Shown here in pieces: positions 1,722 through 7,747 of a stretch of 64,000 nt of DNA. Positions within the stretch are counted from its first letter, which is position 1; each line of letters begins with the position of its first letter. Where the stretch lies: assembly GCF_003334305.1 (NCBI RefSeq), contig NZ_QOWS01000023.1. The stretch is one strand, 5' to 3'. The DNA comes from Escherichia coli. GTDB lineage: Bacteria; Pseudomonadota; Gammaproteobacteria; Enterobacterales; Enterobacteriaceae. Under the pieces are notes generated by a model. The model did no database searches, was not told the DNA's origin, and saw nothing but the letters and a program-made list of their open reading frames with translations. The translations under genes and the position numbers were made by a program.

Positions 1722-3983
1722 TTACCCCAGACGCAAATTCTGCGCCGCCTGCACCATGTTCGCCAGTGCCGCGCGGGTTTCTGGCCAGCCGCGCGTTTTC
1801 AGGCCACAGTCTGGGTTGACCCACAGGCGCTCTGCCGGAATGCGTTTTGCCGCTTTCTTCAGCAGGGCTTCAATCCATTCCACGCTCGGTACGTTTGGCG
1901 AGTGAATGTCATAGACGCCTGGACCGATTTCATTCGGATAATCAAACTCTTCAAACGACTCCAGCAACTCCATGTCGGAACGCGAGGTTTCGATGGTGAT
2001 GACGTCTGCATCCAGCGCCGCAATGGAATCCATGATGTCGTTGAACTCGCAATAACACATGTGAGTGTGGATTTGTGTGTCATCTTTCGCCACGGCGGCG
2101 TTGATACGGAAGGCCTCTACGCCCCACTGGAGATAGGCGTCCCAGTCGCTACGACGCAGTGGTAAACCTTCGCGCAGCGCCGGTTCGTCAATCTGGATGA
2201 TACCAATCCCTGCCGCTTCCAGATCGGCCACCTCATCACGCAGCGCCAGCGCAATCTGTTTGGCGATGGTTTCACGGCTGACATCTTCACGCGGGAACGA
2301 CCAGCAGAGTATGGTCACCGGCCCCGTCAGCATCCCTTTCACCGGTTTGTCGGTCAGCGATTGCGCATACTTCGCCCACTCCACGGTAATCGGTGCCGGG
2401 CGACTAACGTCACCAATAACAATCGGTGGCTTCACGCAGCGGGAACCGTAGCTCTGTACCCAACCGTTTTGCGTAAAGACAAACCCGTCGAGGTGCTCGC
2501 CAAAGTATTCCACCATGTCATTACGCTCGGCCTCGCCATGTACCAGCACATCCAGTCCCAAACGTTCCTGTTCAACAATGGCCTGCCTGATATGTTCCGC
2601 AATGCCCGTGCGGTAGTTATTGGCGTCGAGATTGCCCTTTTTGAAATCCAGACGCAGGGTACGAATTTCCGTGGTTTGCGGGAAAGAACCAATCGTGGTG
2701 GTCGGCCACGCTGGCAGTTTAAAACGCGCACGCTGGGCTTCGGCACGCACTTCATAGACATTCGCACGCTGGCTGTCCTGGGCGGTGATCGCCGCCAGAC
2801 GCTTTTCTACCGCCGGATTATGTACGCGGGTAGAGTGACGACGTGCCTGAATCGGGGCGCTCCACTCTGCCAGAGCTGCCGTGTCACCACTGTTCAGCGC
2901 ATCGCGCAGCAGTGCCAGTTCATGGCATTTTTGTAGGGCGAAGGCAAACCAGCTTTTCACTTCTGCATCAAGACGCGTTTCCACGCTCAGGTCGATGGGG
3001 CTGTGCAGCAACGAGCAGGAAGATGCCACCCACAAATCACGTTTGCCGACAATGTCCTTAATTTGCGCATATTTCTCGGTAAGATCGGCGCGCCAGACGT
3101 TACGACCATTGATCAGACCCGCAGACAGCAACCAGTCAGAAGGCAGGCGCTTGTGCAGTTCAGCAACGTCATCTTTACCATGTACGAGGTCAACATGCAG
3201 ACCCTGAACAGGCAGCGCAGTAATCGTGTCGAGATTTGGCGTTACGCCTTCAAAATAGGTGGTCAGCAGCAGTTTCACCTGTCCCTGGAGCGCGTCGTAA
3301 GCGGGTTTGTATGCGTCCAGCCACGCCTGTGGTAGTTCCAGTACCAGCGCGGGTTCATCAATCTGTACCCACTCGATGCCGCGTTTCGCCAGTTCTGCCA
3401 GCACTTGCTGATAAACCGGCAGAATGTCGTTCAGCAGGCTAAGGCGGTCAAACTGTTCACCTTTCACTTTCCCCAGCCACAGGTAAGTAACCGGCCCCAG
3501 CAGCACAGGCTTAACGTTGTGGCCCAGCGCCAGCGCCTCGTCCACTTCCTCCAGCAGCTGCGTCCAGGTCAGTTTGAACTGTTGGCCTTTAACGAATTCC
3601 GGCACCATGTAGTGATAGTTGGTGTTAAACCATTTGGTCATTTCCGCTGCCGCCGCAGGTTCGCCAGTCGGCGCACGTCCACGACCAATACGGAACAGGG
3701 TGTCGATATCTACCGAACCGTCTTTGTTCTGATGACGTGGCGGAACATTACCCAGCAGCAGACTGGTGGTCAGAACATGATCGTACCAGGCAAAATCGCC
3801 CACCGGCAGCAGGTCGATACCCGCTTGCTTTTGTTGATCCCAGTGACGAGCACGCAGTTCACGCCCTACTGTCAGCAGTTCTTCACGCGTGGAGTTCCCC
3901 GCCCAATAACTTTCTTGCGCTTTTTTCAGCTCGCGACGCAGGCCAACGCGAGGGAAACCGAGGGTGTGATTAAGAATTGTCAT
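1722..3983 (-). CDS. metE: cobalamin-independent methionine synthase (753 aa)
   Basis: 753-aa [33 protein letters not shown]... recognised as MetE. Confidence 0.97.
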
Positions 3984-4100
3984 TATATGCCCCTTATGGA
4001 ATTTTTAGTATTTAGCCGTCCAGATGTTTACACATCCATAATTGGCGGTTACTGTATATTCCTCAAGCGCAAATTATTCATGCCGAAGTGAAGGACTTTC
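3984..4100. promoter_or_regulatory. metE-metR divergent control region (expected MetR and MetJ operator sites)
   Basis: 117-bp divergent intergenic region between metE and metR start codons; site positions not resolved by eye. Confidence 0.45.
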
Positions 4101-5054
4101 ATGATCGAAGTAAAACACCTGAAAACGCTACAAGCGTTGCGGAACTGCGGCTCTCTCGCAGCCGCTGCGGCGACGTTGCATCAGACGCAATCCGCCCTGT
4201 CTCACCAGTTTAGCGATCTGGAACAACGCCTTGGCTTCCGGCTATTTGTGCGTAAGAGCCAGCCGCTACGCTTTACACCGCAGGGAGAAATCCTGTTGCA
4301 ACTGGCAAACCAGGTGCTGCCGCAAATTAGCCAGGCACTGCAAGCCTGCAATGAACCGCAGCAGACGCGTCTGCGCATTGCCATTGAGTGCCATAGCTGT
4401 ATTCAGTGGCTGACGCCCGCGTTAGAAAATTTCCATAAGAACTGGCCGCAGGTAGAGATGGATTTTAAATCGGGCGTGACGTTTGACCCGCAGCCCGCGT
4501 TGCAACAGGGCGAGCTGGATCTGGTGATGACCTCCGATATCCTGCCGCGCAGTGGCCTGCATTATTCGCCGATGTTCGACTATGAAGTGCGTCTGGTGTT
4601 AGCACCTGACCATCCACTGGCGGCGAAAACGCGAATTACACCGGAAGATCTCGCCAGCGAGACGCTGTTGATTTATCCGGTGCAGCGTAGTCGACTGGAT
4701 GTCTGGCGGCATTTTCTTCAGCCGGCAGGCGTCAGCCCGTCACTGAAAAGCGTCGATAACACCTTATTGTTGATTCAGATGGTTGCCGCGCGGATGGGTA
4801 TTGCCGCGCTACCGCATTGGGTAGTAGAGAGTTTTGAGCGCCAGGGTCTGGTGGTGACCAAAACCCTGGGCGAAGGCTTGTGGAGCCGACTGTACGCCGC
4901 CGTGCGCGATGGCGAGCAGCGTCAGCCAGTTACGGAAGCGTTTATTCGCTCAGCGCGCAATCACGCCTGCGATCATCTGCCGTTTGTGAAGAGCGCGGAG
5001 CGACCCACTTACGATGCACCCACAGTGAGGCCAGGATCACCAGCGCGCCTGTAA
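4101..5054 (+). CDS. metR: LysR-family transcriptional activator MetR (317 aa)
   Basis: [48 protein letters not shown]... with LysR-type N-terminal HTH; recognised as MetR. Confidence 0.95.
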
Positions 5055-5841
5055 TAAACGTTGGCCAGTGCGGCTGTTGGTGCCAGATAGCCAGGTTTAC
5101 CAGCAGCCCTGCCGGAACGTGCATATTATTCATAATGCCCAGCGTTCCGGCGTCCACCTGCGTCGCGCCGTAGTTCCACATAAAGTAGCCAATCCCGGAA
5201 GCCACCACGCCAAGAAACACCAGAATGCCCCATTGCAGCGTGGTTTGCGGCATTTTCTGCGCATTTCCCAGCAAGAACCATGCAATTACCGCCACCAGGA
5301 ACGCGCCAAGATAGAACCACGCAAAGGCGTTATGCTGCGGCATCGGGCGAGTTTCCATCAGGCGTTTGTAACCCACCATGCCGATGGCAAAAGTGATATT
5401 GGAGAGTTGCACCAGCAACAAGCCAGTCCAGAAATGGTCGGTGACCTGATCATAGCGAATAATCCCGGCACCAATCACCGCCAACAAGGCACTAAAAGCA
5501 TATCCCCAGCGCAGACGGCGCTTACTCATGATGTCATAAATCAGCGTGATGTAGAGCGGCGTCAGTACGGTGAACAGCAGCAGTTCGGAAACCGTCAGAT
5601 AGAGATAAGCGCGGAAACTCAGCATATACATCACGCCAAGCTGCATCGCGCCCACCAGCATATACAGGCCGACTGTTTTCAGGCTATTGCCACGGGTACG
5701 CAGAAACGGCAGAAAAACGAGTGCCGCCAGGCCAACGCGCACCAGCACCGCAAAATAGCTATCGACGTGCCCCGCAAGGTACTCGCCATAAAAGCTAAAG
5801 GAGAAGGCCCACAGAATCGTGGTGATGATAAGTAGCGCCAC
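4942..5841 (-). CDS. yigM: inner-membrane transporter YigM/BioP family (299 aa)
   Basis: 299-aa polytopic hydrophobic ORF in the K-12 yigM position; 3' end overlaps metR 3' end. Confidence 0.8.
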
Positions 5842-5916
5842 AATGGAAAACTCTTTGATTAACGAGTATCCATTGTAGCGAAGTATCAGGTTGACAACTG
5901 ACCAAATAAAGAACGA

Positions 5917-6717
5917 TTACGATAAATAGAGTTTACGCAGATAATGCGGCACCGCGTCGTCGGCATTAGTACCAATCACTTCCAGCTCGGGATGAAGGTC
6001 TTTCAGACGCTGGTGCGCACTGCCCATAATGCAGCCTTTCCCCGCCATCGACAGCATTTCGGCATCGTTCATCCCGTCACCAAACGCAATACAATCCTTC
6101 AGGCTGTAGCCCAGTTTCTTCGCCACCGCTTCCAGCGCATGGCCTTTCGACACGCCGCCCGCCATCACTTCCAGACAGGTTAAGGTAGAGAAACTGACGT
6201 TGACGCGATCGCCCCAGCGAGCGTTAATCGCCTGCTCCAGCGGCAGCAGTTGTTCATGGGAATCGCAGGTGAAAAACACTTTGCTGACGCCTTCCGGCTC
6301 CAGTAATCCAGGCTCATACAGCGCATATTTGAACACCGCTTCTTTAAAAAAGCGCATCTCTTCCGGGCGATGGCGATTCATAAACCATTCGTCGTCGCGA
6401 TAAACGTTAGTAATGATGTCCGGATTGTCGTTGACTACGCCAAACAGATCGCTGGCAATGTCGCGATCCAGGTTATGAGCAAAAATCAGATTACCATCCA
6501 GATCGTGAACGCGCGCACCATTGGAGGTAATCATGTAAGACTTAATCTCCAGATTATCGCGAATTTGCCCCACATCAACGTGGTGACGACCGGTCGCAAA
6601 CACAAAGTTGATGCCGCGCGCGGTGAGCAGCTTCAGAGTTTCTTTGGCGTAAGGGGATAACGTATGGTCGGGAGAAAGTAACGTGCCATCTAAATCAGAC
6701 GCAACAACCTGGTACAT
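5917..6717 (-). CDS. yigL: HAD-family sugar phosphatase YigL (266 aa)
   Basis: ORF track 5917-6843; internal ATG at 6717 gives MYQVVASDLDGTLL... with the HAD DxDGT motif and the 266-aa length I recall. Confidence 0.85.
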   Translation of the reverse strand: MYQVVASDLDGTLLSPDHTLSPYAKETLKLLTARGINFVFATGRHHVDVGQIRDNLEIKSYMITSNGARVHDLDGNLIFAHNLDRDIASDLFGVVNDNPDIITNVYRDDEWFMNRHRPEEMRFFKEAVFKYALYEPGLLEPEGVSKVFFTCDSHEQLLPLEQAINARWGDRVNVSFSTLTCLEVMAGGVSKGHALEAVAKKLGYSLKDCIAFGDGMNDAEMLSMAGKGCIMGSAHQRLKDLHPELEVIGTNADDAVPHYLRKLYLS

Positions 6718-6724
6718 AAGAAAT

Positions 6725-7747
6725 TTAAACCTCTGTAGAGCGGTTTCCGCTGGGTGAGTTATGCCTGTTGAAAAAATCAACAATGGCGTGGAGCGCGACT
6801 GAGCGCATTGCGTCCTTTTCAAAAAGGATCTCATGGTAAGCACCTTTAATTACCAACGGTCGTCCTCCTTCGACAGGATGGCCCGCGGCGGTGCGGAGTT
6901 CACAAAAACGGTCATGCATGCGGTTATCCACCACGCGTTCCTCTTCAGCTTGTAAGAGAAGCGTTGGCGTGGCGTCATCACCCGCACCGGCTAACACCTG
7001 TTCGCCAGCCAGAATACTTTCGCGTACCCAATGGTAGGTCGGCCCACCGACGCGAATCGTTGGGTCATCAGCATAGAAGCGTAAGTTACGTCGATATCGC
7101 TGTCTGCTGTGGGTCAGTACGTTGATAGCAAACGGCAACGCGCGCCAGCGCCCGGTGCCTATTGCATAGCCATCACGGAAACGTGGATGCGCTTCGGCCC
7201 AGTTGAGGATCTGCCGTGCCATAAATGACGGCATACGAATCACGATCCCAAACATTGGCGCAGTTAGCGCAATGGCGTCACATACACCTGGATGGCGTTG
7301 CAGAAATAATGTGGAGATCGCACCGCCCATCGAATGTGCCAGTATATAGCGTTTACGCCACGGACCGGGCTGAACCTCCTGCTGCCAGAATGCCGCCAGA
7401 TCATCAACATAATCATTAAAGCGATTAACATGCCCGAGATGCGGATCGGCTAACAGGCGACCGGAACGTCCCTGCCCGCGATGGTCGATGATTAAGACAT
7501 CAAACCCCAAATGGAACAGGTCATAGGCCAGTTCCGCATATTTTACGTAGCTCTCAATACGCCCCGGGCAGATGACTACCACCCGGTCATGGTGCTGTGC
7601 GCGAAAACGGACAAAGCGCACCGGAATGTCATCCACACCAGTAAACTCTGCTTCATCACGCTGACGCCAGAAATCAGTCAGCGGTCCCATGGTAAAAGCA
7701 GCAAACGCGTTTTCTCTTGTTTCCCAGTCTTTTTGCTGCTGAAACAT
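6725..7747 (-). CDS. pldB: lysophospholipase L2 (340 aa)
   Basis: 340-aa ORF with alpha/beta hydrolase GHSMGG motif; synteny. Confidence 0.9.
   Translation of the reverse strand: MFQQQKDWETRENAFAAFTMGPLTDFWRQRDEAEFTGVDDIPVRFVRFRAQHHDRVVVICPGRIESYVKYAELAYDLFHLGFDVLIIDHRGQGRSGRLLADPHLGHVNRFNDYVDDLAAFWQQEVQPGPWRKRYILAHSMGGAISTLFLQRHPGVCDAIALTAPMFGIVIRMPSFMARQILNWAEAHPRFRDGYAIGTGRWRALPFAINVLTHSRQRYRRNLRFYADDPTIRVGGPTYHWVRESILAGEQVLAGAGDDATPTLLLQAEEERVVDNRMHDRFCELRTAAGHPVEGGRPLVIKGAYHEILFEKDAMRSVALHAIVDFFNRHNSPSGNRSTEV

Follow-up and report, generated by a model that had tools for sequence, protein, structure and literature searches.

The window, the whole stretch of 64,000 nucleotides of E. coli DNA that we analysed, carries in order metE (- strand, 1722-3983), metR (+), yigM/bioP (-), yigL and pldB. 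The metR gene (+, 4101-5054) is divergent from its target metE and convergent with yigM/bioP (-, 4942-5841), and both the open reading frame (ORF) listing and the raw sequence place positions 4942-5054, 113 bp, in the two convergent genes at once. Both ORFs are intact and each stop codon lies within the ORF of the partner, which is what makes a convergent coding overlap genuine. The features of the junction are as follows.

4101-5054, + strand: metR coding sequence, for the 317-aa LysR-type activator of metE/metH; stop codon TAA at 5052-5054; limits identical in the ORF list and in RefSeq
4942-5841, - strand: yigM/bioP coding sequence, annotated as a 299-aa DMT/EamA biotin transporter; GTG start at 5841; stop codon TAA, which is TTA on the + strand at 4942-4944
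4942-5054, both strands: convergent coding overlap of 113 bp, in the sequence and in RefSeq
4942-4944 (feature 4942-4947), - strand: yigM stop codon, antisense of the conserved MetR Phe281-Ile282
5052-5054 and in-frame 5055-5057 (feature 5052-5058), + strand: tandem metR stops TAA-TAA, antisense of YigM Phe262-Ile263 (with Thr264)

A sequence-only reading of this DNA had put the metR stop at 5054 and the yigM stop at 4942 on the opposite strand, with an antisense overlap of 113 bp between them; these positions are exact in the sequence and in the ORF listing, and identical in RefSeq. The limits of both coding sequences according to RefSeq/PGAP are the same in strain H15 and in K-12 MG1655 (b3828/b3827), where bioP occupies 4011076-4011975 and metR 4011863-4012816. 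The overlap is an ordinary feature, already annotated and published: the locus and its 113 bp are those of the K-12 metR/bioP overlap noted by Côté et al. (2016, PMC5120140). What is added here is the comparative picture, namely a switch of constraint inside the overlap, locked stop codons, and lineages in which the overlap is absent. Next to this pair, the mechanically called yigL ORF (window 5917-6843, - strand, GTG start, 308 aa) overlaps the end of pldB, whereas the RefSeq YigL has 266 aa (5917-6717); the apparent yigL-pldB overlap is due to the longest-ORF rule and is not a real one.

The identity of the two proteins is well supported. MetR scores 741 bits against the NCBIfam MetR equivalog NF011950 (cutoff 382), aligned over residues 1-317 of 317, and contains the Pfam domains HTH_1 (PF00126, 5-63) and LysR_substrate (PF03466, 86-288). 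The DNA-binding domain in PDB entry 5fo5 is identical to that of this MetR, and the alignment with PDB entry 4ab5, the effector domain of Neisseria MetR, covers MetR 87-296. YigM scores 310 bits against TIGR00950 (cutoff 230) over residues 11-273, with two EamA repeats (PF00892) at 3-128 and 139-275. A probable role in biotin uptake is assigned to it by the RefSeq product name, 'bioP: biotin transporter', and by Côté et al. [quoted passage not shown] The domain and family models stop early, and therefore the last 20-25 residues of both proteins fall outside model coverage.

The overlap contains MetR codons 281-317 plus stop and YigM codons 263-299 plus stop. In the register adopted by this pair, position 1 of one codon is opposite position 1 of the other, metR position 2 is opposite yigM position 3, and metR position 3 is opposite yigM position 2. 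Consequently, any silent change in one gene hits the second codon position of the other.

Within the species the arrangement is practically universal: of 5426 complete E. coli genomes, 5424 contain the window segment 4000-5900 with an identity of at least 95%. As a separate observation, only 42% of this segment is matched, in two pieces, in E. coli Z135-6 (NZ_CP159632.1, 2012530-2014509), where the annotated features read 'hypothetical protein | LysR family transcriptional regulator | bioP', so that metR seems to be disrupted or replaced there.

Conservation among species was assessed with one genome per species, for which 80 Enterobacteriaceae loci were returned. The 113-bp overlap, a metR of 317 codons and a yigM of 299 codons, without a single indel, are present in 77/80 species, and the yigM stop is at the same position in all 80. 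Few loci deviate: MetR has 312 aa in Citrobacter gillenii (L022); in two loci (L035 and L078) the first metR stop is lost and the protein ends one codon further on, at the second TAA, giving 318 aa; and one locus (L063) has a premature yigM stop and a YigM of 284 aa. One record of the sample, L053 (CACSKA010000013.1), is titled 'Chryseobacterium sp. 18061' and holds an Enterobacteriaceae metE-metR-yigM locus with a MetR 92% identical to that of E. coli; a sister record of the same project (L059) is labelled Citrobacter, and the L053 assembly is probably mislabelled or contaminated.

Among their best 120 and best 80 matches the large searches gave close relatives only, and outgroups were reached through representatives at 50% identity and a Dickeya MetR query. 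The MetR comparison covers the Enterobacterales. Outside the Enterobacteriaceae sample the pair looks as follows.

Yersinia (L091): 113-bp overlap; MetR 317 aa, YigM 299 aa
Rahnella (L094): 95-bp overlap; MetR 311 aa, YigM 299 aa
Pectobacterium (L090): 95-bp overlap; MetR 311 aa, YigM 299 aa
Dickeya-like (L082): 98-bp overlap; MetR 312 aa, YigM 299 aa
Serratia liquefaciens (L092): no overlap, 32-bp spacer; MetR 316 aa, YigM 287 aa
Pantoea (L096): pair separated by an intervening gene; MetR 313 aa, YigM 287 aa
Mixta (L093): 476-bp gap; MetR 307 aa, YigM 282 aa

Elsewhere in the Enterobacterales the lengths range from 307 to 318 aa for MetR and from 282 to 299 aa for YigM. Homologues of YigM with 51% identity or less do not adjoin metR and mostly have 280-296 aa. 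The separated forms have features of their own. In Serratia the spacer (L092 3452-3483, on a metagenome contig) contains at 3458-3481 a GC-rich hairpin (GGGCAGC...GCTGCCC) with 10 base pairs in its stem, after which the + strand has a T-run; this hairpin, with the A-rich run before it, may be a bidirectional terminator, although the scan scored it on the + strand only. The sequence inserted between metR and yigM is a gene of the DUF1456 family in Pantoea (L096 3551-4027) and, in Mixta (L093 3612-3860), a small ORF of 82 aa with no Pfam hit; these insertions mark the metR-yigM junction as a site of rearrangement in the Erwiniaceae. Finally, the Dickeya-like YigM (L082 556-1455, Logan SRR11696187) contains a stretch of ~45 residues, ...GGTGVSWRGGVGPGLFHVELWRHPGGFRHVEYHEQLSRPG..., unlike any other YigM and with normal flanks. 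It looks like a double frameshift, from an assembly error or in a pseudogene, and it brings the YigM identity down to 57%.

The sequence-only reading had allowed for both ends being genuine, and they are: both stops are kept in 77/80 Enterobacteriaceae species and in three other genera or families of the Enterobacterales. Both C-termini proved to be conserved across the Enterobacteriaceae, with 317/299 aa, 113 bp and no indels in those 77 species. An earlier stop in orthologues, proposed as evidence against the overlap, is not general in the Enterobacteriaceae, 77/80 being standard, but it does occur in the YigM of Serratia, Pantoea and Mixta, which has 282-287 aa. The suggestion that one C-terminus is over-extended fails as a matter of annotation, since the stop codon sets the C-terminus and the same stops recur in thousands of genomes; in an evolutionary sense it survives. 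The tails are extensions in this sense because non-overlapping YigM proteins of Serratia, Pantoea and Mixta have 282-287 aa and MetR varies from 307 to 318 aa across the Enterobacterales.

To see which protein governs the shared sequence we used column entropy for each codon phase over the 80 species, which are not independent of one another. In the following values, a metR wobble site is also position 2 of a yigM codon, and a yigM wobble site is also position 2 of a metR codon.

Upstream of the overlap (metR only): metR wobble 0.91 bit; yigM wobble 0.06 bit
4942-4998: metR wobble 0.59 bit; yigM wobble 0.08 bit
4999-5054: metR wobble 0.22 bit; yigM wobble 0.83 bit
Beyond the overlap (yigM only): metR wobble 0.12 bit; yigM wobble 1.05 bit

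The periodicity of substitutions flips sharply within 4996-5004, near 4999, and divides the overlap into two halves.

4942-4998: metR-dominated half, encoding MetR aa 281-299, the end of the effector-domain fold; on the opposite strand, the YigM tail, aa 282-299 plus stop
4999-5054: yigM-dominated half, encoding YigM aa 263-281, the end of the last membrane helix and the HRKWVAP segment; on the opposite strand, the MetR tail, ~aa 300-317 plus stop

Second codon positions are 5 times as variable in the YigM tail as in the YigM core (0.59 vs 0.12 bit, p=1e-7) and 13 times as variable in the MetR tail as in the MetR core (0.83 vs 0.06 bit, p=3e-9). As to purifying selection in the two frames, the codon periodicity within each half is that of one gene only, and the hints of constraint on the tails are weak. 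The sequence-only reading had held that the overlap constrains both proteins. This is correct for the core of each, but the constraint is one-sided in each half, and the last 17-18 residues of each protein are largely passengers. The switch point at ~4999 is consistent with where the domain models and the 4ab5 alignment end; together, switch point and domain ends indicate that the two functional cores meet without a spacer, each ORF running on through the core of its partner.

We consequently favour, with a probability of about 0.85, a genuine and ancient tail-to-tail overlap of two unrelated genes without a spacer, in which the cores abut and the tails are passengers. According to this interpretation, MetR would be constrained up to ~aa 299-300, where its LysR effector domain ends, and YigM/BioP up to ~aa 281, the end of the last membrane helix and a short basic segment. 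Past ~4999 each ribosome would read the antisense of the partner's constrained sequence as far as the first stop, adding 17-18 residues to each protein. The tails would be mostly passengers, their sequence dictated by the codons of the partner, with second positions that can change, and they could be lost. Some lineages do without them, and for E. coli itself we infer the same passenger status.

The length of the overlap needs no special explanation. Stops occur in this antisense register at a frequency of 4.3% per codon in the long ORFs of the window, so a run-on of 17 codons has a probability of ~0.47, one of 18 codons ~0.45, and both together ~0.22. Once the two cores abut, the overlap length is within chance expectation.

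Both stop codons would, in addition, be locked, each being antisense of a conserved Phe-Ile in the partner. Either Phe codon keeps the yigM stop, because in this register TTY-ATH gives TRA on the opposite strand. When all single-base changes were enumerated for stops that stay silent in the partner, one site was found in each tail.

4988: the only partner-silent site for a yigM stop in the YigM tail; MetR Val296 GTG to GTC or GTT turns YigM Ser285 into a stop
5038: the only partner-silent site for a metR stop in the MetR tail; YigM Val268 GTG to GTT or GTC turns MetR Ser313 into a stop

Nature has used both. Citrobacter gillenii has exactly the change at 5038, which leaves a MetR of 312 aa, and locus L063 has the change at 4988, which leaves a YigM of 284 aa; two clusters with YigM of 284/285 aa (P0075 and P0076, Salmonella serovar Gaminara) match this by length alone. 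The tails persist because nearly all other shortening mutations would alter a conserved residue of the partner, and no function of the overlap needs to be invoked.

The history of the junction can be followed in part through Serratia, whose MetR tail (RPSAGVASVKPLASQP) resembles the overprinted tails of Rahnella and Yersinia. A single Rahnella segment has significant alignments to two Serratia sequences, the metR tail and the 3' end of yigM (0/2000 shuffles in each case); the direct similarity of the two Serratia segments is not significant (p=0.65), only the transitive match via Rahnella being so. These alignments suggest that the overlap may be ancestral to at least the Yersiniaceae, Pectobacteriaceae and Enterobacteriaceae, and that in Serratia a duplication of the shared segment, with the gain of a terminator, may have undone it.

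The alternative that survives best, and which we nevertheless consider unlikely, is true dual coding, in which both tails function as protein and the 113 bp are selected in both frames throughout. In its favour, variability at metR wobble sites is lower opposite the YigM tail than in the rest of metR (0.59 vs 0.91 bit, p=0.017 uncorrected and with non-independent species); the reverse comparison, of MetR-tail constraint on yigM synonymous sites, was not significant over the 80 species (p=0.30). Furthermore, the yigM wobble sites at 5014, 5032 and 5038, opposite MetR Asp305, Pro311 and Ser313, are nearly invariant in the 80 species: YigM Val268 is GTG in 78/80, compared with 59% GTG among the other Val codons of yigM, and the invariant MetR Asp305 implies CAT for YigM His276 in 80/80. 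These frozen sites may point to a degree of constraint on the MetR tail in the Enterobacteriaceae. The final YigM residue, Glu299, is also invariant, and truncating stops are far rarer than under a fully neutral model. No indels occur in the 80 species, as dual coding would have it, but their absence is accounted for by the partner's reading frame. Against selection for two functional tails stands the 5- to 13-fold variability of their second codon positions relative to the cores, together with the scarcity of invariant positions, which number 2/18 in the YigM tail and 5/18 in MetR aa 300-317, where ERP (aa 300-302) accounts for three of them. Mixta, Rahnella, Pectobacterium, Dickeya and C. 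gillenii have a MetR of 307-312 aa, and Asp305, Pro311 and Ser313 are missing from the shorter MetR of the first three; the YigM of Mixta, Pantoea, Serratia, Salmonella Gaminara and L063 stops after 282-287 aa.

A second group of observations concerns the transcripts. Because the coding regions overlap, the transcripts of metR and bioP necessarily overlap as well, and because there is no room for a terminator both mRNAs enter the partner gene, so that full-length 3' parts are complementary over at least 113 nt. A terminator scan of 4500-5600 found none in or just past the overlap on either strand, and one chance-level site at 4655, upstream of the overlap. RNA folding around the overlap was not unusual on either strand when compared with shuffled sequence (z -0.8 and -0.3), and Rfam gave no match at E<=1 over 3900-6000. 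Published transcriptomes contain a Rho termination region on the yigM strand, with its peak at MG1655 4011704 (+), a Rho score of 5.07 and p=1e-12 (Adams et al. 2021, PMC7815308, supplementary file 2), and no discrete Term-seq 3' ends near the overlap in the tables of Adams et al. at MG1655 40118xx-40120xx (PMC7815308). Mapped to the window, the Rho region falls as follows.

~5213, within yigM: peak of the published Rho region, mapped from MG1655 and of coarse resolution (800-nt windows)

Rho-dependent termination would probably follow the end of translation, and heterogeneous Rho-dependent termination inside the partner gene is probably the mode that operates here.

Such transcripts raise the question of an excludon, a reading to which we give still less credit than to dual coding. 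It holds that the overlap was selected because convergent transcription, or pairing of the 3' ends of the mRNAs followed by RNase III cleavage, makes metR and bioP mutually antagonistic, and thereby links methionine/SAM control to biotin uptake. The arrangement has been kept over several families with no terminator between the genes, as this reading would expect. Biotin synthesis consumes SAM, and this general metabolic link between SAM and biotin also favours it. The pair is one of 165 convergent excludons of MG1655 obtained from RNA-seq coverage (ExcludonFinder 2025, PMC12288877), a list of adjacent genes with overlapping transcripts in no fewer than half of the analysed transcriptomes; the listing denotes transcript overlap only, not reciprocal regulation. 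The genes are separated in Serratia, with a terminator hairpin between them, and in Pantoea and Mixta, yet neither gene has been lost. The conservation of the arrangement is explained by the scarcity of partner-silent routes to shorter ORFs, the overlap has the length expected by chance, and there is no conserved RNA structure. A regulatory role is possible, and transcript overlap is the only observation in support of it.

More improbable again is a composite proposal. Here the state without a spacer would be kept since antisense transcription over the shared 3' ends couples MetR inversely to BioP, a coding-region excludon joining two cofactor economies, and, separately, Asp305, Pro311 and Ser313 might form a functional motif of the MetR tail in the Enterobacteriaceae.

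The weakest alternative, that an annotation or sequencing artefact has over-extended one C-terminus and the real protein ends before the overlap, has next to no chance of being correct: most long overlaps annotated in prokaryotes are errors (Pallejà et al. 2008, PMC2478687) and both tails extend beyond the Pfam/NCBIfam domain limits, but stop codons are independent of gene calling, the same frames and stops recur in 5424 E. coli genomes and 77/80 species, constrained core sequence of both proteins lies within the overlap besides the tails, the convergent orientation is the sole one with true long overlaps (Pallejà et al., PMC2478687), and deletion of metR phenocopies the loss of yigM (PMC5120140). 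Read as an annotation error, the artefact is refuted by stops conserved across genomes and species.

The abutting of two unrelated genes with passenger tails, which we prefer, places the locus among known systems. Pallejà, Harrington and Bork (2008, PMC2478687) accepted a class of long convergent overlaps with real cases, 54 in 338 genomes; as here, these are 3'-3', exceed 60 bp and keep the lengths of orthologues, and the metR-bioP overlap differs in being shown here as two halves, each dominated by one gene. With the convergent excludons of PMC12288877, where bioP-metR stands in the E. coli core list, it shares overlapping 3' transcripts. Classical excludons, in contrast, have a long UTR overlap and mutually exclusive expression, whereas the metR-bioP overlap is coding. 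The closest likeness is to C-terminal run-on, or overprinting: the tails reach past the family domains, non-overlapping orthologues have none or different ones, and the sequence that encodes them is antisense of older conserved coding sequence. Unlike generic run-on, the metR-bioP event is old and common to several families, and Serratia seems to have reversed it.

The practical meaning is a caveat on deletions and insertions in the final 113 bp of metR or bioP. Côté et al. (2016, PMC5120140) noted the substantial overlap of the two genes and traced the yigM-like behaviour of the Keio metR deletion strain to the simultaneous loss of yigM. Deletions or insertions in the last 113 bp of either gene damage the other, and therefore the phenotypes of metR mutants, for example that of the Keio collection, can be bioP phenotypes. 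Furthermore, the locus offers a clean textbook case of a long convergent overlap built from abutting cores and then locked by the constraints of each partner, for which the 'resolved' forms in Serratia and the Erwiniaceae are natural controls.
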